Assembly (NCBI GenBank): GCA_903863035.1
Contig: CAIPAT010000167.1
Coordinates: 1,963-65,962 of the forward strand
Origin: an uncultured Lentisphaeria bacterium
GTDB lineage: Bacteria; Verrucomicrobiota; Lentisphaeria; Victivallales; Victivallaceae
Reading direction: 5' to 3'
Length of the DNA: 64,000 bases
The translations under genes and the position numbers were made by a program. A model generated the notes under the pieces. It saw only the letters and a list, made by a program, of their open reading frames with translations. It did not search any database and had not been told where the DNA came from. Positions 23,127 through 60,267 of this stretch are shown here, in pieces (position 1 is the first letter of the stretch; every line of letters begins with the position of its first letter).

Positions 23127-23875
23127 TTATCCAGATTCCATATACGGATGCTTAAACGGTCGTAAATCCCGGGAAAAATCTTCAGCATCGGTACAGCTAT
23201 ACGGTTCCAGCCGGGGTAAATCAGGCTGCGGCTGTTTTTCCGCCATGCTTTGAACAGCGCCGAGGCGAAGACGTCCGGGGAACCGCCGCCGGGAGTGTGC
23301 GGCGGCTGACGGTTGCCGAACGAACGGCTGGAAAATCCGGTGTCGATTCTGCCGGGGGCGACGTCAATAACTTTTATGCCGTAACGTTTTACTTCCGGGC
23401 GGATCGTATTTGAAAACGCGGTTACTGCCGATTTAGTGGCACAGTAAGCTCCCATGCATGGAACGTAAAGGTCTGCGGCGATAGACGATACGTTCATCAC
23501 GGTCCCTTTCGATTCTTTCAACAGCGGAAGAAACATTACTGTCATGGCGTTCAGCGCAAAAAAGTTCAGTTCAAAAATGTCCCGCAAATCATGTTCTGAA
23601 AGATCCTCCCAGGTGGAGTAGCCGCCTTTGCCGGCATTGTTGATCAACACATCAGTCCGTCCGAATTTTTCCGTCGTCTGTTTCAGCACTTTCTCGCGGT
23701 CTTCCGGTTTGGTGATGTCGGCTTCAATCCAGATGTCCGGCTCAAAGTCAGGTCTGGAGCGGGAAATGCCGACGACTTTGATGCCGTGCTGCATGAATTT
23801 AGCCGCCGCGGCTTTGCCAAGACCGCTTGATACTCCGGTGATAACGGCTACTACCGCCTGGTTTTTATCAATCAT
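23123..23875 (-). CDS. Short-chain dehydrogenase/reductase (SDR) family oxidoreductase
   Basis: 250 aa. It has the ITGVSSGLGKA (TGxxxGxG) motif, NNAG, and the YCATK catalytic Y-x3-K. Confidence 0.9.
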   Translation of the reverse strand: MIDKNQAVVAVITGVSSGLGKAAAAKFMQHGIKVVGISRSRPDFEPDIWIEADITKPEDREKVLKQTTEKFGRTDVLINNAGKGGYSTWEDLSEHDLRDIFELNFFALNAMTVMFLPLLKESKGTVMNVSSIAADLYVPCMGAYCATKSAVTAFSNTIRPEVKRYGIKVIDVAPGRIDTGFSSRSFGNRQPPHTPGGGSPDVFASALFKAWRKNSRSLIYPGWNRIAVPMLKIFPGIYDRLSIRIWNLDK

Positions 23876-24758
23876 TTGCTTTTAATCCATTCCCGGTAAT
23901 GGAAATACCGGCATAACTTACGCAATGCGAAAAGTCCCCTGTGAGATCGCCGGAAGTAGTGTAATCAACTAGTTCCGCCTGTAGTTTTTCACCGTTGGCG
24001 ATGGCCAGGCGGACAGCGGCCAGCAGAATGCGGATCGGTCCGGCACCGCAGATTGTCGCCCCGGTTCGGTTGACATAATGATTAAAGCCGTCAAGATCAA
24101 ACTTGAGGATATGGTTTACAGCGCCCATATCCAGTTCATGCAGATTTTTTTTGACGTCGCTTACGAACGGCTCATAGCTGAAAGCTTTGCCGTAATGCGT
24201 AAAGTCGGAACTGATCACCCACAGCGTTTCTTTATTCCAGAACTGCTCCAGCGCCAGCGCCACATGTCCGGCGGTCACGACATCAATAAAACCGGCGATT
24301 ATCGGGATTATTTGCATTTCCGGATTCAGTTCGTGCAGCAGCGGCAGTTCAACTTCCAGCGAATGTTCATAGTCATGCGTTTCGGATAAGTTCTGGATAT
24401 ACTGAGATTCATTTCCCAAAATTGCGGCGACGGCTGCCGCGTCAACTTTCATGCTGCCCAGCGGTGTGCTGTAAGCGGAGTAATCAGCGGTGGCGATCCC
24501 GCGGAAAGGCACCCGGTGGGAAGGCGCGATTATCAATGCACGGGAAAATCTGCCGGCGTCTGCGCGCAACAAGGTTTTAATCGCCGTAAGGGCGGAATAT
24601 TCGTATCCGGCGTGAGGCAAAATCACCGCTCTGGCACCTTTCGCCGGAATAACGTCAGGAACCTTTTTGATAAAAGCGGCGACCTGGTTGGCAAGCATTT
24701 CCGGATTGCTGGTGTAGAACCTGCCGGCGGCAAAAGTTTTTCTCACTTCCTGTTCCAT
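23868..24758 (-). CDS. Memo-family protein (AmmeMemoRadiSam system protein B homologue), stand-alone
   Basis: 296 aa. It has AGRFY, ILPHAGYEYS, APSH, EHSLEVELPLL and SSDFTHYG, which are Memo motifs. Confidence 0.85.
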   Translation of the reverse strand: MEQEVRKTFAAGRFYTSNPEMLANQVAAFIKKVPDVIPAKGARAVILPHAGYEYSALTAIKTLLRADAGRFSRALIIAPSHRVPFRGIATADYSAYSTPLGSMKVDAAAVAAILGNESQYIQNLSETHDYEHSLEVELPLLHELNPEMQIIPIIAGFIDVVTAGHVALALEQFWNKETLWVISSDFTHYGKAFSYEPFVSDVKKNLHELDMGAVNHILKFDLDGFNHYVNRTGATICGAGPIRILLAAVRLAIANGEKLQAELVDYTTSGDLTGDFSHCVSYAGISITGNGLKAND

Positions 24759-53737: not shown

Positions 53738-54394
53738 CTATTTTGCGGGCTCGGCATACATGGCCGGCTTGTCGGATAGACGTTTCTGCTTAATCAGGGA
53801 AGCGTATTGCTTGGCGTCAATGTCGCGGGGGCCGCCGGGCGGGGGATTGCCGGCGGCGGCGCCGGAAGTTGACGGCAGATCGGCTGCAGGCGTCTGTTTC
53901 GAGGGCGTACCGATCAGTTTCCCGAAAGCGTCGCCGGCTTTTTCCAGCGTTTTGGCAATGCCTTTGGAACTGTATGTCGCACCGGTCACCGCTTCGGTAT
54001 CGCCAATGCCCGGCTGAAAAATATCTTTATCGAGATAGCGGTCTTTTTTCTGGATTGCCTTGTTGAGATATTGGGGGGTCTCGGAATGTTTGATTATCTG
54101 GAAATTTCTCAAGACGCCGGCGGCGGACACATAGACCAGCATTTGGATCGGACCGTGAAACCCCTGGACGTCATGGACAAAATCACCGGTATCAAAAATA
54201 TATCCGGAAATCTTCCCGGCCTTGTCTTTCAATTCATAAAAGGCCTTGCCGTCAACTTTGCGGATTGCCGGAGCAAAGTGATTACTGCCGGTAATTTTAT
54301 GGATGTCATCGGTTGAAAGCGGTTTAATTTCAGCGGATGACAAAACTGCCATTGCCAAAACCATTCCCAAAATCAGAGTTATTTTTCTTATCAT
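53738..54394 (-). CDS. Exported FMN-binding domain protein (FMN_bind; flavinylation-type motif)
   Basis: 218 aa. It has the signal peptide MIRKITLILGMVLAMAVLSSA and EAVTGATYSSKGI, which matches the [S/T]GA[S/T] FMN-attachment motif of RnfG/NqrC-type domains. The tail is Pro/Gly-rich. Confidence 0.8.
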   Translation of the reverse strand: MIRKITLILGMVLAMAVLSSAEIKPLSTDDIHKITGSNHFAPAIRKVDGKAFYELKDKAGKISGYIFDTGDFVHDVQGFHGPIQMLVYVSAAGVLRNFQIIKHSETPQYLNKAIQKKDRYLDKDIFQPGIGDTEAVTGATYSSKGIAKTLEKAGDAFGKLIGTPSKQTPAADLPSTSGAAAGNPPPGGPRDIDAKQYASLIKQKRLSDKPAMYAEPAK

Positions 54395-54424: not shown

Positions 54425-54697
54425 TACTCTGCACGGCTGAAAATTTAACATAGATTGCGAAGATTTTGAGAATTGGTTCGTATTCTGAAAGGCTGCCGAT
54501 ACCGGGGTATCGAAGGCCTCGAAGAGTGCGAATCCAAAATCGAAAGATCGCAATCCAGCAATTGCTGGGCGAGCACCTTGCACCCGTCTTTTTCCGTTCC
54601 TCCTTCATGCGATGCGGGTATCGCCTGTCAGTAGGATCGAAAAAATCCAAACCACAATCCTGCTCGTCTATTCTTAAATTTTCAACCGTGCAGAGTA
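54425..54697 (+). mobile_element. MITE copy C (complete, 273 bp)
   Basis: The TIRs are tactctgcacggctgaaaattt ... aaattttcaaccgtgcagagta. TA flanks lie at 54423-24 and 54698-99. It sits between the FMN-binding gene and the spermidine-synthase-like gene. Confidence 0.8.
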
Positions 54698-54980: not shown

Positions 54981-57314
54981 TCAATAGCGATTATTCCTGT
55001 CCGGTTTTCTGTACGCTATCGCCAGGAGCATCAGCAGTGCAGCGATAGCCAGCAGCAGCAGTTTATCCGTTCCCAGCAGCGGCAGCAGGATGACCGCGGT
55101 GACAATTCCGCTGATCGCGCCGCCGATGTTATCCAGTGTTTCCAGCAGCGCCGCCGCGGACGTGTCGCCGCGTCCGCGCTGTTTAAAAATATATGCGGCG
55201 CGCGGCAGATAAGCACCGCTGAAAAATCCGGTACCCAGAAACAGCAGTGCGAAAATCCATACCGGCAGCGAACCGCAGGAGAGATGTCTGAGCAGCAGCA
55301 GAAATACTATAAAACCCGATGAGGCGGACACGAAAGAGCAGTATCTGCCCTGCCCCCGGTTTTGCAGAAAATCCGTAAGTCTGCCGCCGCAGAACAAGCC
55401 TAGCATAAAAAACGCGTTGACCAGTCCGAAATAGAGGAAAATCGAGCCTTTGTCCATTTGGAAAGCAAACATCAGCCAGATATTAATTGCCATGGCGATA
55501 ATCGAAACGAAAAACAGAATAAACAGCACATCAAAACTGTTGACGGTCATATCGCCTTCCGGACGGGAGTGCGCCGCCTGAACCCCCTGGCGGCGGCGGG
55601 TAAAACAGCGCAGTGCAATCCGCGAGACACCATACAGCGCCAGAACGATGATAGATACCGTAAGAATATCGCTGGAATAGAAGGTGATAGCGGCGGCTGG
55701 AAGTTGAACGCCGCCAAGTTTTTTGATTGAGAAAACCATCGTAAACAGACAGGCCAGCGGGTTGAGATCGGAACTCGACAGATTCTGTTTGCGGAGACGG
55801 CCGGCCGTCTCCTGATATTTGGTCATCTGCAAATCAACCCGCAGCGGATCGAACACCGTCTGCAAATACTGCGGCGGAAAGATATTGCTGAAATAGGAAA
55901 TCCCGTTTAACTGTTTTTCCAGGAGGGGCGCTGAATCGGAAACTTTGCCGGTTTTGAACGCCGCCCAGAAACAACTGTTTTCACCGGGCATTAACGCGAC
56001 CGCTGGAAACACCTGCTGTAGATTCAGCAGCAGCGAACCGCCGAGAAAAGCAATCTCCGGGCTCAGGTAATTTTCGCCGCCCTGAAACGATGCGCTGACA
56101 ATGCCGGATTCAGTCATGACCCGGCTGACAAGCTGATAAAATTCCTTGCTGAAATAGCGGTTCAAGCTGAGTGATGACGGTGCCGGAAAGCGCAGTATCA
56201 CCAGATCGAATTTATCGCCGGCTGTACGCAGATAATCTTTGATTTCAACGCCCGGAATTTTCATCTGCGCCGGAATGGTTTGAAACTGCTTCGGCAGCCG
56301 CCGCAGCAACGCCCCGGCGTAATCCGGATCAGGGTCCAGCCAGACTACCTGGCGGACGCTTTTTATCCCGCAAAATGTCCGGCTCAGATTAAACGTTCCG
56401 GGGCCGATAATGAGAATGCGTTCAGCCATCGGCTGCTGCGCCAGATTCAAAGCCGCGCATTGCAGCGCGGAATCGCGGTCGGCCAGGTTTTCGTAAACGG
56501 AATTCCAGCACAGCACGGTAAAGCTGCCGGAATAATCGCCGCAGATATATTTTGCCTGCGGCGTGAAAAAACTGCCGCTATATTCGCCGCCCGGCAGCAT
56601 CCTTGACCATTGTTTTTGATTTTCCGTCCGCTGCCATAAATTGCCGAATCCGGAAACAGCGGCAATCAGCGAGATTAACGCCATCGCCAATGCCGCCAGA
56701 TACGGCAGCAGCCGCCGGATGCCGCGACGGTTCTCCTCCGTCCGGAACATGTTCAGTCCCAGTGCTCCGGAAGTGATCGCGGCGGCCAGCAGAAAAATCG
56801 TTTCATCCGCGATGCCGGCGGCCAGCATGACCGTTACCGCCAGTGCGCCGCCGAATGAGCCCAGCGCCTCGATGATATACACTTTCACGGCGGGAACCGG
56901 CCCGGATTCCACCCACTTTACCGCCGAGACAAACAGCGCGCCGGTAATCAGGCTGACCGGGGCAGCAAACAATACCGCCGCGACAGCAAGTTTGCCCAGC
57001 GGAATGAGTTCATATTCCGCCACGCCCAGCAACTGCCGGGTATTGAGCAGCAGATATTTTTCCAGGATGAACGCGAACGGATACAGCAGCAGCAGATAGA
57101 CAAAGCAGAGCCGGGCAAATTTTGATACCGGCGGCAGCCAGGCGGCCAGTGCGCCGAAACAGATCCACAACAACCATGCAAACAGGAAAAGCCCGGCGGA
57201 GATTTCACTGCCGTCAAACACCGAAAGAAAATCGCGGAACAATAGCGACTGGACCAGCAGACTGAACATGCCGATACAGAAGATTGTACTTGATGTCAGG
57301 AGCTTGTTTCGCAT
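54981..57314 (-). CDS. Membrane-embedded spermidine-synthase-like protein (TM bundle, Rossmann methyl/aminopropyl-transferase fold, TM bundle)
   Basis: 777 aa. About 7 N-terminal TM helices are followed by a central RILIIGPGTFNLSRTF...VVWLDPDPDY...FDLVILRFPAPSS region (spermidine synthase-like) and further C-terminal TM helices. It resembles the 'fused MFS/spermidine synthase' family as I recall it. Confidence 0.7.
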   Translation of the reverse strand: MRNKLLTSSTIFCIGMFSLLVQSLLFRDFLSVFDGSEISAGLFLFAWLLWICFGALAAWLPPVSKFARLCFVYLLLLYPFAFILEKYLLLNTRQLLGVAEYELIPLGKLAVAAVLFAAPVSLITGALFVSAVKWVESGPVPAVKVYIIEALGSFGGALAVTVMLAAGIADETIFLLAAAITSGALGLNMFRTEENRRGIRRLLPYLAALAMALISLIAAVSGFGNLWQRTENQKQWSRMLPGGEYSGSFFTPQAKYICGDYSGSFTVLCWNSVYENLADRDSALQCAALNLAQQPMAERILIIGPGTFNLSRTFCGIKSVRQVVWLDPDPDYAGALLRRLPKQFQTIPAQMKIPGVEIKDYLRTAGDKFDLVILRFPAPSSLSLNRYFSKEFYQLVSRVMTESGIVSASFQGGENYLSPEIAFLGGSLLLNLQQVFPAVALMPGENSCFWAAFKTGKVSDSAPLLEKQLNGISYFSNIFPPQYLQTVFDPLRVDLQMTKYQETAGRLRKQNLSSSDLNPLACLFTMVFSIKKLGGVQLPAAAITFYSSDILTVSIIVLALYGVSRIALRCFTRRRQGVQAAHSRPEGDMTVNSFDVLFILFFVSIIAMAINIWLMFAFQMDKGSIFLYFGLVNAFFMLGLFCGGRLTDFLQNRGQGRYCSFVSASSGFIVFLLLLRHLSCGSLPVWIFALLFLGTGFFSGAYLPRAAYIFKQRGRGDTSAAALLETLDNIGGAISGIVTAVILLPLLGTDKLLLLAIAALLMLLAIAYRKPDRNNRY

Positions 57315-57581
57315 GTTATTTCACCGTATTTGTTTTTAAATGTCAAAGAAATTTGAATATCCAATATTCAAGTGGAGAAATACCGCTGGCGCGCATGCCT
57401 TTTCCAGGCAGTATTTATGTGCTTTAATAAGTATGATTGTCTTTTGTATTTACCTTTCCTTCATCAGCTGGTTATTTTCCCGCACTGCGGTATCCTGCTT
57501 TGCGGGACTGGATATTGGATATTTGTTTTTAACCCGTTACGCAATATGGAGAAGAACGCAAAACCGTAAAACTCAATTATG

Positions 57582-59114
57582 CTATTTCCGTTTTTCTTTT
57601 TCGCCGAAAACTATGGCCTGAAAGGTTTGGAATTCGGCGCCGCTTTTCCAGGCGTTTGCATCAAGCCCGGCCTTTTCCGCCAGATTCGACAACGTTTCCG
57701 CCAGATCCCAGCCCTGTTCCGGAGCGACCTGCGGCAGGAACACCGCCGAACGCCCGTCTTTTGACAGAATCACGCCGTCCCGGCCGATGACTATATCTTT
57801 ATAGGAATTGACTTTCACCGGCGGCGTCAGCGCGGATATTTCAATGTCAATCTCTTTGAGTTCCGAGGTGGTTACCGGACTGAAACGCCAGTCGTTCAGC
57901 GACGAATTCACCGCCTGGGCGGATACCGCCTGATACAACGGGCGGCGCGGCGGAATTTCACCGATGCAGCCGCGCAGCCGCGCATTTTTATGGAGGGTGA
58001 CAAACGCGCCCATTTTCTGCTTCATGGCCGGGGATATATTAACGCCGAGTTCATCAGGGTCCGGCACGGATTTTCCGGAGACGGCGTATTCGACGGTTTT
58101 CCGGGCAATCAGCAGCAGCGATTTCTTATCGGAGTCTCTCAATTCCGGGAGTTCGGCGTCCGCCGTTTTAACTTGAACCGGCGCCGGTTTCCAACTGCCG
58201 GTAAAAGCGACAGACGCATAGCTTACCGAGTGCGCGTAACTGCCGGTCATTCTGCCGGAAGTGTCATATTTCAGCAACCGGCCTTTACTGCCTTCCGGCA
58301 GCAGCGACAGCAGAACGCGGATGGGGTCCTGTCCGCAGACAGTCGCTCCGGTTTTCTGCAAATACCCGGAGAAACCGTCTTCATTGATTGCAACAATTTT
58401 TTCAATCGCCCCGTCATCCAGTTTCTTCAGCCTGTTTCCGGTCTGGAAGTCCAGCGGAAACGGCTCATAATCAAATGAAGATCCGTAGTGAGTAAAATCG
58501 GAACTGGCGATAATCAGTGTTTTATCATCGAGCAGCGGCGATATCGCGGCAACAATCTGCCGGATCGTCCGATCATCAAGCCGCCCCGTGACAATCGGGA
58601 CCAGCTTGAAGTTTTTCAACGCGATTTGCAACATGGGGATCTGAATATCCACGCTGTGTTCGGCAATATGCGCCTGCGGAATCGATTTACAAAAATCGTA
58701 CTTCAATATTTTATCGATAAATTCGCGGTCCAGTTCGACATCACCAAGCACGGTCCTGATATGCGTCTCCGACGGTATGCTCAGCCAGTTGTTCATCGAC
58801 TGCGAATGCGACGGTCCGAAAATAATCACCCGCCGGATCGCTTTGCCCGCGATTTCTTTAATGCCGCAAGCCGCGATTTTGCCGGAATAACGATATCCGG
58901 CGTGCGGTTGAATCAGTGCGATCACATTCTGCAACTCCGGGACTTTCGCATCCGCCAGGTCATTGCTGACCATTTTCGAAAGTTCCGCCGGATCGGCGGG
59001 ATACCAGCTGCCGGCCAGCGAGGATTCGAAGATGCGCTTTTCAGCCGCGAAACCGGCGAACGGCGCGACCGTCAGCAGCAGCAACAAACAGCATATGGCA
59101 TTCAGTGTTTTCAT
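57582..59114 (-). CDS. Fusion of AmmeMemoRadiSam system protein B (Memo) and protein A (AMMECR1) with an N-terminal Sec-type signal peptide
   Basis: The ATG at 59114 (MKTLNAICCLLLLLTVAPFAGFAAEK...) has AAGGAG about 11 nt upstream. The ORF-track start at 59123 is too close to the RBS. Memo motifs are GSWYP, QPHAGYRYSG, GPSH and SSDFTHYG. AMMECR1 motifs are GAFVTLHKNARLRGCIG and AVFLPQV. Confidence 0.85.
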   Translation of the reverse strand: MKTLNAICCLLLLLTVAPFAGFAAEKRIFESSLAGSWYPADPAELSKMVSNDLADAKVPELQNVIALIQPHAGYRYSGKIAACGIKEIAGKAIRRVIIFGPSHSQSMNNWLSIPSETHIRTVLGDVELDREFIDKILKYDFCKSIPQAHIAEHSVDIQIPMLQIALKNFKLVPIVTGRLDDRTIRQIVAAISPLLDDKTLIIASSDFTHYGSSFDYEPFPLDFQTGNRLKKLDDGAIEKIVAINEDGFSGYLQKTGATVCGQDPIRVLLSLLPEGSKGRLLKYDTSGRMTGSYAHSVSYASVAFTGSWKPAPVQVKTADAELPELRDSDKKSLLLIARKTVEYAVSGKSVPDPDELGVNISPAMKQKMGAFVTLHKNARLRGCIGEIPPRRPLYQAVSAQAVNSSLNDWRFSPVTTSELKEIDIEISALTPPVKVNSYKDIVIGRDGVILSKDGRSAVFLPQVAPEQGWDLAETLSNLAEKAGLDANAWKSGAEFQTFQAIVFGEKEKRK

Positions 59115-59299
59115 CCTCTCCATTCTCCTTGTTTTGCGATTGCCTTGAAATCTAGTTTTTTTATTTTCCCGGGATAGCGCCCGCCTCTTACGGCTTCAAT
59201 CACCCGTCGCGGCGCCGCTGTTGCAAACGCGCCGCATTTGGCGATCAGGCTGTACACATACAGCACCCCGGCAACCTTTATAAAATCTCGTCTTTTCAT
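59111..59299 (-). CDS. 62-aa ORF with a twin-arginine (Tat) signal-like N-terminus
   Basis: The sequence is MKRRDFIKVAGVLYVYSLIAKCGAFATAAPRRVIEAVRGGRYPGKIKKLDFKAIAKQGEWRG. Its ATG overlaps the radical-SAM stop (ATGA at 59296-59299). Its stop overlaps the Memo-AMMECR1 ATG (ATGA at 59111-59114). Confidence 0.5.
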   Translation of the reverse strand: MKRRDFIKVAGVLYVYSLIAKCGAFATAAPRRVIEAVRGGRYPGKIKKLDFKAIAKQGEWRG

Positions 59300-60267
59300 T
59301 TCCATACTCCATAAATTTTTTTGCCGCATTTGGGACATTTGCCATCGCTGAGATTATTTTCCATCATTACCATATTGTGCCGCCGGACCAGCTCGCCGCC
59401 GCAGCCCGGACAGAAAGTGCAGGTCCATTGTTCATTGAGAATATTGCCGACATAAACGTATTCCATGCCGGCGGCTTTCGCGATATCGCGGGCACGGCCC
59501 ATCGTCTCTTCAGAAGTCGGCGGCAGATTGCGCATCAGATAATAAGGAACGAATTTCAGAAAATGCAGCGGCGTGTCTTTGCCGAGATTATCTTTCACCC
59601 ATTTCACGAACGCGGACAGCATCGCGTCGCTGTCATTCAGCGTCGGGATGACGAGGTTGGAAACTTCCAGTTCCACACCCATTTCCTTCGTACTGATCAC
59701 CGTATCAAGGACCGGCGCCAGAGTGCTGCCGCAAACCTCCCGGTAGAACTTGTCCGACATGGCTTTTACATCAATAGTTGCCGCGTCGACATAGCGGCAC
59801 AGCTGGCGGTAAGGTTTGCGGTTGATGTAGCCGGCGGTAACCAGAATATTTTTCAATCCGGCTTCCCTGGCTTTGATGCTGCAGTCCAGGGCGTATTCAT
59901 AGTATGCCGCCGGGTCTGTATAAGTATATGAAATAGACGGACACTCGTAGCGTTTGGCCATCTGCACCAGCTGGTCCGGCGATACCTGACAGACGTCAAC
60001 CAGATGCGGCGGCGACTGCGAAATTTCCCAGTTCTGGCAATTCTTGCAATGCATGGTGCAGCCGACTGTCGCCATTGAAAAAGTTCTGGTTCCAGGCATA
60101 AAGTGAAACAGCGGTTTTTTCTCAACCGGATCGACATGCATTGAACACGGGAATCCATACGTTACCGCCAGCAGTTTCCCGTCAAGATTCACGCGGATAC
60201 GGCAATCTCCGCTCTGTCCCGGTTTGACCAGACACCCTCTGGGACACAGTTCACATTGAATATCCAT
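59296..60267 (-). CDS. AmmeMemoRadiSam system radical SAM enzyme
   Basis: I prefer the ATG at 60267 (MDIQCELCPRGC...), which is preceded by GGGAGAGGGG about 9 nt upstream. The CX3CX2C motif is GCTMHCKNCQNW. It has the N-terminal Cys-rich CELCPRGC...GDC and C-terminal CTFCPGCG...CPKCG clusters typical of this family. Confidence 0.9.
   Translation of the reverse strand: MDIQCELCPRGCLVKPGQSGDCRIRVNLDGKLLAVTYGFPCSMHVDPVEKKPLFHFMPGTRTFSMATVGCTMHCKNCQNWEISQSPPHLVDVCQVSPDQLVQMAKRYECPSISYTYTDPAAYYEYALDCSIKAREAGLKNILVTAGYINRKPYRQLCRYVDAATIDVKAMSDKFYREVCGSTLAPVLDTVISTKEMGVELEVSNLVIPTLNDSDAMLSAFVKWVKDNLGKDTPLHFLKFVPYYLMRNLPPTSEETMGRARDIAKAAGMEYVYVGNILNEQWTCTFCPGCGGELVRRHNMVMMENNLSDGKCPKCGKKIYGVWK

Follow-up and report, generated by a model that had tools for sequence, protein, structure and literature searches.

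An AmmeMemoRadiSam locus with a Sec-type signal on its Memo-AMMECR1 fusion and a putative twin-arginine signal supplied in trans to its radical SAM enzyme

Introduction

On which side of the cytoplasmic membrane does a radical S-adenosylmethionine (SAM) enzyme work when the protein encoded beside it carries an export signal? This question is raised by an AmmeMemoRadiSam locus in a stretch of 64,000 nucleotides from an uncultured Lentisphaeria bacterium (assembly GCA_903863035.1, contig CAIPAT010000167.1, positions 1,963 to 65,962 of the forward strand), which is referred to below as the window. The locus lies on the minus strand and comprises three translationally coupled genes, in the order radical SAM enzyme, an open reading frame (ORF) of 62 codons, and a fusion of Memo (protein B) to AMMECR1 (protein A). 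Systems that combine Memo, AMMECR1 and a radical SAM enzyme are attributed to Burroughs et al. 2019 where that work is cited in PMC7159879. On balance, comparison of the sequences leads us to favour the view that the window encodes an envelope-targeted form of this system, in which the small protein would provide a twin-arginine translocation (Tat) signal in trans and export the radical SAM enzyme by hitch-hiking. The evidence consists of a secretory (Sec) type signal on the fusion, a conserved twin-arginine protein that accompanies the enzyme, and sister lineages in which the Tat signal forms part of the enzyme itself.

Results

Three coupled genes of the AmmeMemoRadiSam families

The radical SAM gene (59299..60267, minus strand, stop codon 59296-59298) encodes 323 amino acids (aa) of the AmmeMemoRadiSam type. 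It starts with MDIQCELCP at 60267, the ATG being preceded at a distance of 9 nt by the ribosome-binding site GGGAGAGGGG, and its frame extends at most 9 codons further upstream, to 60294. The stop codon of this gene overlaps the start of the 62-codon ORF (59111..59299, minus strand) in an ATGA, and the stop of that ORF overlaps the start of the fusion gene (57582..59114, minus strand, 510 aa) in the same manner; a GGAG-type ribosome-binding site lies 5' of each of the three starts. The initial annotation had given this gene order, which reading and family matches bear out, and had reported an additional coupled gene, which is real, flanked by ATGA on both sides and conserved across phyla. It had also described all three junctions as tight. 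Two of them are indeed ATGA overlaps, but the third, from the fusion to the downstream membrane protein gene, is opened here by a spacer of 267 bp.

All three families score above their curated NCBIfam cut-offs, which are 220 bits for TIGR04337, 26 for TIGR04336 and 99 for TIGR04335, and Pfam agrees with the assignment. The enzyme reaches 351.6 bits against TIGR04337, with a match that begins at profile position 10, and 51.3 bits against Pfam Radical_SAM (PF04055). Its CX3CX2C cluster motif, read from the sequence, is CTMHCKNC (residues 70-77, with C70, C74 and C77; 60037..60060, minus strand). In the 513-aa ORF of the fusion, TIGR04336 (Memo) matches aa 35-307 with 213.9 bits and TIGR04335 (AMMECR1) matches aa 335-506 with 162.8 bits; Pfam Memo and Pfam AMMECR1 both match as well.

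The locus thus shares with canonical AmmeMemoRadiSam (TIGR04335/TIGR04336/TIGR04337) the adjacency of the three families and the retention of the Memo metal site, LRGCIG and CX3CX2C. The Memo domain (58194..59012, minus strand) keeps the metal-site residues in PHAGY, GPSH, SSDFTHYG and TxCG, and the alignment of homologues shows H71, H103, D206, H209 and C260 as invariant columns. The AMMECR1 domain (57597..58112, minus strand) has the LRGCIGE motif, in which L380, R381, G382, C383, I384 and G385 are invariant. Two usual properties of the system are lacking, namely a full-length enzyme N-terminus and freedom of the components from targeting signals, the latter being an assumption rather than a formal criterion. 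Compared with the canonical system, the window has B and A fused behind a Sec signal and an enzyme that lacks profile positions 1-9, and it adds a Tat mini-protein, a SpeE-like membrane protein with 14 helices and a protein that binds flavin mononucleotide (FMN).

The Memo-AMMECR1 fusion carries a Sec-type signal peptide

Signal and topology assignments were made from hydropathy and motif rules. The fusion starts with MKTLNAICC and is 510 aa long from there. Its first 23 residues, MKTLNAICCLLLLLTVAPFAGFA (59046..59114, minus strand), form a predicted signal peptide with K2 in the N-terminal region, a Kyte-Doolittle peak of 2.35 over aa 6-24, and a predicted signal peptidase I (SPase I) site between GFA and AEK. 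The segment has the charge, the hydrophobic core and the small residues at -3 and -1 of a Sec-type signal, and it lies outside the mature fold. In the AlphaFold2 (AF2) model of the fusion, which has a mean predicted local distance difference test (pLDDT) score of 90.5, residues 2-19 form a separate helix at pLDDT 65-79 and the Memo fold begins at residue 28. Hydropathy, this helix, retention of the signal in close relatives and its occurrence throughout the clade all agree with the Sec-type signal that had been proposed for this protein.

A true start downstream of the hydrophobic segment is ruled out, as no usable in-frame start exists. The only in-frame starts are at residue 1, at residues 10 and 11 (TTG codons within the hydrophobic core) and at residue 48. 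Because the Memo fold begins at residue 28 in the AF2 model, a start at residue 48 would cut off the first strand of the fold.

A database search returned more than 5,800 homologues of the fusion, each about 500 aa in length. Among the top 120, a signal peptide or anchor was found in 78 and a lipobox in 28, with 12 having none; the signal is likewise present in the fusions of small-ORF loci, 44 of 46 of which bear a signal peptide, lipobox or anchor. Members of the fusion clade normally have the signal, which does not set the window locus apart. The locus had been called atypical, a description that does not hold: the arrangement is the standard layout of a large clade, as shown by the size of the homologue set and by the 106 of the 120 nearest members that have a signal, lipobox or anchor.

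Signal-bearing fusions also occur with neither an adjacent radical SAM gene nor a small ORF, in G006, G010, G015, G026, G028, G037 and G039, and in 28 of the loci L008-L087.

The 62-residue protein is a conserved protein with a predicted Tat signal

The initial annotation had recorded the 62-aa ORF, and its presence stands, but its nature as a twin-arginine signal protein had gone unrecognised. The protein begins with MKRRDFIK and ends with GEWRG. Read from the sequence, aa 1-26 (59222..59299, minus strand) constitute a putative Tat signal with an RR motif, a hydrophobic region and an AFA cleavage-type site that is followed by TAAPRRVIEAVRGGRYPGKIKKLDFKAIAKQGEWRG. MKRRDFIK corresponds to the S/T-R-R-x-F-L-K-type motif. 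The hydrophobic region falls below the transmembrane threshold, and weak hydrophobic regions are typical of Tat signals. The window protein has AFA before T at the predicted cleavage site; many members of the family have no clear AxA. TatC is encoded in the genome (TIGR00945, 167.6 bits, contig C464). We propose that the small protein acts in trans as a Tat escort of the radical SAM enzyme.

The small ORF belongs to no Pfam or NCBIfam family, its sole match being a sub-threshold one to TAT_signal, and all its homologues are named 'hypothetical protein' in databases. A search with the single sequence gave close relatives only; 80 genome loci encoding fusion homologues were then collected, the small ORF was found in them with an iterated hidden Markov model (HMM), and the remaining gaps were read by eye. 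A radical SAM gene of the TIGR04337 type lies directly upstream of the fusion in 52 of these 80 loci, separated from it by a gap of 150-250 bp. This gap holds the small ORF in 46 of the 52 by HMM and in 5 more, divergent ones, by eye (about 51/52). The loci carry labels of Planctomycetota, Hydrogenedentota, Kiritimatiellia, Lentisphaerota and Verrucomicrobiota, among others. In none of the other 28 loci, in which the fusion has no adjacent radical SAM gene, was the small ORF found, so the small ORF tracks the enzyme and not the fusion. Across 41 related genomes it is single-copy in 12, and all 11 strong matches lie directly upstream of the fusion gene.

In an alignment of 38 small-ORF sequences (A2), R3, R4, W60 and the C-terminal G62 are invariant, and F6 (at least 90%), A36, P43 and G44 are nearly so; identity to the window sequence is 18-44% outside the two closest relatives. 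The alignment shows the 62-aa ORF to be a conserved protein, invariant only in what we read as its twin-arginine signal and in its C-terminal W-x-G. A chance ORF is ruled out by the invariance of R3, R4, W60 and G62 across 38 divergent sequences. An apparent natural fusion of radical SAM enzyme and small ORF in L077 proved to be an artefact, an open alternative frame in GC-rich DNA, with the two genes in different frames.

That the hydrophobic N-termini are annotation artefacts, produced by wrong starts or a chance ORF in an otherwise ordinary cytoplasmic AmmeMemoRadiSam system, is scarcely credible given that the fusion has no alternative start, that signals and small ORF are conserved across phyla, and that the same genome holds a separate set without signals. 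This second set, whose genes are dispersed, consists of a stand-alone Memo of 296 aa without a signal (window 23868-24758, minus strand), a stand-alone AMMECR1 of 194 aa (G000:C208:21711-22214) and a second radical SAM gene with the canonical N-terminus PASWWEPCADGKVKCRLCP (G000:C304; L005 1471-2355). Since the genome keeps a separate Memo, AMMECR1 and canonical radical SAM gene free of signals, the exported set is a paralogous system and not a replacement. The second radical SAM gene encodes only 294 aa, ends in ...FLGNI and seems to be without the C-terminal Zn-ribbon part.

The position of the small gene also suggests another role. The protein may be exported alone by Tat and serve as a periplasmic subunit, tether or regulator of the fusion, with the enzyme remaining in the cytoplasm. 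The small gene overlaps the start of the fusion and always lies directly upstream of it, the enzyme itself has no signal, SAM and reductants are established to be cytoplasmic, and the mature peptide, with its conserved YPG and W-x-G, cannot be recognised as the enzyme's first strand. We nevertheless consider export of the small protein alone unlikely. The small ORF occurs in 0 of the 28 fusion loci that have no adjacent radical SAM gene, an unstructured peptide of 33-36 residues has no obvious need for Tat, and the lineages described in the next section speak against it in two further ways: sister lineages that share the fusion and the membrane partner have the Tat signal on the enzyme and no small ORF, and the small ORF of another lineage carries the enzyme's own first strand.

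The Tat signal is found in cis or in trans according to lineage

Homologues of the enzyme were gathered in an HMMER search over 1.8 billion representatives, and close homologues show three kinds of N-terminus. The first is canonical, with MKEAxFYxxLxxxxVxCxLCP. The second comprises long forms of 365-420 aa with an RRxFL twin-arginine signal placed 45-70 residues before the first strand. The third, to which the window enzyme belongs, starts M..VxCxLCP and has neither signal nor strand. The window enzyme has no signal and lacks profile positions 1-9, which correspond to the EAxFY first beta-strand, so that it begins at the second N-terminal strand; its nearest representatives, P0152, P0170 and P0213, start as it does. 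In the AF2 model of L141, a homologue with the Tat signal in cis (mean pLDDT 92.7), the signal helix 3-24 has low pLDDT and is followed by a disordered linker (26-33), and strand 45-48 (YEKL) lies in the fold at pLDDT of about 97 beside strand 52-55 (EIKC). The start of the window enzyme is the equivalent of this second strand (52-55).

Multi-domain relatives occur among P0153-P0292, with the radical SAM domain C-terminal in proteins of 589-1055 aa and N-terminal in proteins of 838-1112 aa; some of them begin with membrane or signal segments.

A set of 80 metagenome loci, collected with an alignment of the long (cis-Tat) forms, was classed by the enzyme N-terminus. The Tat signal is in cis in 54 of the 80, with the fusion following at -91 to +37 bp in 13 and no small ORF; there the small-ORF HMM matches the enzyme's own signal only. 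Short enzymes like that of the window account for 7 loci, and the fusion follows at +128 to +200 bp in 5 of these and also in L155. The remaining N-termini are hydrophobic without RR (8 loci), canonical without a signal (6) or unclassed (5). A small Tat ORF occupies the 128-200 bp between the short enzymes and the fusion. It is of the window type in L157, L167 and L155 (E ~1e-24); L155 was scored as canonical by the script, yet its enzyme starts just as short.

A second type of small ORF is found in L119 (1368-1505), L140 and L151. Its C-termini, ...PLKEAMFWRRLDDE, ...DKKAMFWRKRR and ...YKEAMFWKRLN, represent the canonical first strand of the enzyme, so that these small Tat ORFs end in the strand segments KEAMFWRRL, KAMFWRK and KEAMFWKRLN, respectively. 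In a tree of enzyme cores, the 52 window-type enzymes fall on one side of a branch with a Shimodaira-Hasegawa-like approximate likelihood ratio test (SH-aLRT) value of 98%, and the second trans type is a clade of its own (99%) among cis and hydrophobic forms. Because the two trans types form separate clades, the Tat signal was detached at least twice.

A cofactor protein without a signal thus stands beside a signal-bearing partner, and the signal is in cis or in trans depending on the lineage, which is the pattern of Tat hitch-hiking. The initial annotation had taken the enzyme for one of cytoplasmic type. It is not an ordinary one: its first strand is missing, a Tat signal is paired with it in trans, and in sister lineages that signal is in cis.

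The enzyme fold bears on a further explanation, in which the radical SAM enzyme would modify the small protein in the cytoplasm as its substrate, for instance a precursor of a cofactor or of a ribosomally synthesised and post-translationally modified peptide (RiPP). After export by Tat, the peptide would be processed or put to use by the periplasmic Memo-AMMECR1. For the model of a cis-Tat member, the best structural match is the activase of pyruvate formate-lyase (PFL; PDB 3CB8), at a TM-score of 0.81 over the target and 16% identity, and the window enzyme has weak NCBIfam matches to glycyl-radical activases. PFL activase acts on a protein loop, the small gene immediately follows the enzyme gene, and the strict C-terminal W-x-G together with YPG recalls precursor peptides with conserved C-termini, of which MftA and PqqA are examples. 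The family differs from PFL activase in its additional N-terminal Cys-rich and C-terminal Zn-ribbon-like parts, and no glycyl-radical enzyme partner is present. On the other hand, Radical_SAM and Fer4_12 are the only Pfam domains of the window enzyme, which shows no SPASM or RiPP recognition element (RRE) type domain, and such a peptide is absent from canonical and cis-Tat systems. In L119, L140 and L151, moreover, the ORF bears the structural strand of the enzyme and no substrate-like core, and the most conserved element of the family is the RR signal itself. We regard a substrate role as very unlikely. Both this explanation and that of lone export are weakened by the alternation of cis and trans forms, by the small ORFs that carry the strand, and by the lack of any small ORF in loci with the fusion only.

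Membrane and FMN-binding partners downstream

Unsupervised clustering of neighbours across the 80 genome loci returned four conserved genes only, namely those for the radical SAM enzyme, the small protein, the fusion and a large membrane protein downstream. In 54 of the 80 loci the gene immediately after the fusion encodes a homologue of this membrane protein (median length 1222 aa, median distance -3). In most relatives, this protein of about 1200-1300 aa combines transmembrane segments, a Spermine_synth-like domain, FMN_bind and two Fer4_5 (NapH/NosR-type). In the window, it corresponds to two genes, of 777 aa and 218 aa. The extent first given for the module, 57582-60267, is therefore too small, as the module takes in both of these downstream genes.

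The 777-aa protein (54981..57314, minus strand) consists of 7 transmembrane segments, a 324-aa SpeE-like Rossmann domain (Pfam Spermine_synth, 23.9 bits) and 7 further transmembrane segments. The SpeE-like domain lies between transmembrane segments 7 and 8; loops assigned to the inside contain 26 Lys/Arg, compared with 6 in the short outside loops, and hydropathy and the positive-inside rule predict a periplasmic location for the domain. Conserved within it are LviG.g and W...D, with the Rossmann G-x-G and an acidic position. A function as spermidine synthase was rejected, since the best NCBIfam score is 37 bits against a cut-off of 472 and the aminopropyltransferase motifs are not kept.

The 218-aa protein (53738..54394, minus strand), which is N-terminally anchored or exported, matches Pfam FMN_bind with 51 bits, is of the RnfG/NqrC/NosR type and contains the flavinylation-type motif TGATYSS; ApbE is encoded elsewhere in the genome. 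Like the NosR/NapH conduits, which consist of a periplasmic flavinylated FMN_bind domain, transmembrane segments and Fer4_5, most relatives have a protein with FMN_bind and two Fer4_5, and the window has an FMN_bind protein with TGATYSS in a genome that encodes ApbE. Unlike those conduits, the FMN protein of the window is a separate 218-aa gene with no Fer4_5 at the locus, and the module is joined to the SpeE-like 14-helix protein and not to N2O or nitrate reductase genes.

The spacer between the fusion and the membrane protein gene (57315..57581, 267 bp) is an insertion relative to the closest relative, L008, in which the corresponding junction is TAA-C-ATG, and it breaks the overlap or abutment of these genes that is usual in relatives. 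Copies of its core (about 55-95 bp) are found at 27 further sites in the genome, at 75-91% identity and with one exact match of 22 bp. The spacer is not a copy of the window's 270-bp miniature inverted-repeat transposable element (MITE) but a different short dispersed repeat. A copy of the MITE itself lies at 54425-54697, between the 777-aa membrane protein gene and the FMN-binding protein gene, whose counterparts make up one protein in most other phyla.

The 14-helix protein figures in one more explanation of the small protein. The Tat-type signal may be a tether only, the small protein being inserted in the membrane and keeping the enzyme at the cytoplasmic face beside the 14-helix protein, while a product or a radical-modified substrate passes outward to the fusion. 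SAM and reductant chemistry would then stay in the cytoplasm. Many members of the small-ORF family have no clear AxA site, and the enzymes of L110, L121, L133, L148 and L150 have plain hydrophobic N-termini without RR that are more anchor-like than Tat-like. The N-terminal positive charges, on the other hand, would be expected to leave the C-terminal docking part on the outer side, the signal is not hydrophobic enough to form a stable transmembrane helix, and the invariant RR together with F points to recognition by TatC. A mere tether is decidedly unlikely in our judgement.

The five enzymes just named deserve mention in their own right: their N-termini are Sec-like or anchor-like and have no twin arginine, and such N-termini fit poorly with the export of a folded Fe-S protein.

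Discussion

The arrangement of signals at this locus suggests the following sequence of events. The small protein would bind the radical SAM enzyme in the cytoplasm once the latter is folded and loaded with its cluster, its C-terminal segment probably docking where the first strand of the enzyme is missing. The enzyme would then pass through the Tat translocon as the hitch-hiking cargo of the small protein. Were the enzyme exported in this way, all catalytic parts would come together at the outside of the cytoplasmic membrane, where the FMN protein may supply electrons, a task that in most relatives would fall to a fused NosR/NapH-like module of FMN and polyferredoxin parts.

A topology with all parts outside the membrane is more likely than one in which a cytoplasmic enzyme faces an exported partner, because the enzyme lacks its first strand and is paired with a Tat signal in trans, and sister lineages have that signal in cis. 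The initial annotation had proposed either a membrane-associated complex or a substrate that crosses the membrane. The exported fusion on which that proposal was built stands, but an enzyme left in the cytoplasm is judged less likely and is kept as a rival to the export that we favour.

Tat hitch-hiking is the closest mechanistic analogue of the window pair. Known examples are the large subunit of [NiFe]-hydrogenase, which is exported with the small subunit HybO/HyaA, and DmsB, which is exported with DmsA. As in these pairs, the window has a cofactor protein without a signal encoded beside a twin-arginine partner, and in its relatives cis and trans forms alternate. Unlike these pairs, the partner is a protein of about 60 aa, made up of a signal and a tail of 33-36 residues and not of a full redox subunit, and the cargo would be a radical SAM enzyme. 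A stand-alone signal protein that completes its cargo would, if this is true, be to our knowledge the smallest signal-bearing partner in Tat hitch-hiking.

Several points weigh against the export of the enzyme by the small protein. We infer both the binding of the two proteins and the export from sequence patterns. The Pfam TAT_signal score of the small protein is 13.1 bits, below the cut-off of 22.7, and the small gene follows the enzyme gene, an order that simple gene fission would not give. Homology of the window-type mature part to the linker and first strand of cis-Tat forms was considered and rejected, as the alignment of the small-ORF HMM is confined to the signal (HMM positions 6-32). 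The mature window-type tail (PRRxxxAxRxxxYPG...KWxG) has no detectable similarity to cis-Tat N-termini beyond the signal, and for the window clade strand replacement is therefore argued by analogy with L119, L140 and L151 and from a single invariant Trp. No Fer4_5 polyferredoxin part is present at the window locus, unlike in most relatives. We know of no SAM and low-potential reductant outside the cytoplasm, and no extracytoplasmic radical SAM enzyme is described in the literature searched.

Radical SAM catalysis outside the cytoplasm, in which the Tat-carried enzyme would act with the Sec-exported fusion, draw electrons from the flavinylated FMN protein (in relatives, from a NosR-like conduit) and receive SAM or a related sulfonium from the 14-helix protein with its outward-facing SAM-fold domain, is a tentative proposal that we hold to be rather unlikely.

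AMMECR1 and MEMO1 are conserved from archaea to humans. The signal-bearing variant of AmmeMemoRadiSam is widespread but undescribed in the literature searched, and its export is treated in no paper found that names the system, in a search that excluded Burroughs et al. 2019. The comparisons presented here suggest that, across a large bacterial clade, all components of the system are directed to the envelope and joined by electron-transfer and SAM-fold membrane partners, with the Tat signal located either in cis or on an escort of 60 residues. It had been suggested that the topology could constrain hypotheses about the function of the system, and this is supported: targeting to the envelope would narrow the possible substrates to envelope or extracytoplasmic molecules. 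The variant further predicts a contact between the tail of the escort and the N-terminus of the enzyme, and it prompts one to ask whether radical SAM catalysis is possible at all beyond the cytoplasm.

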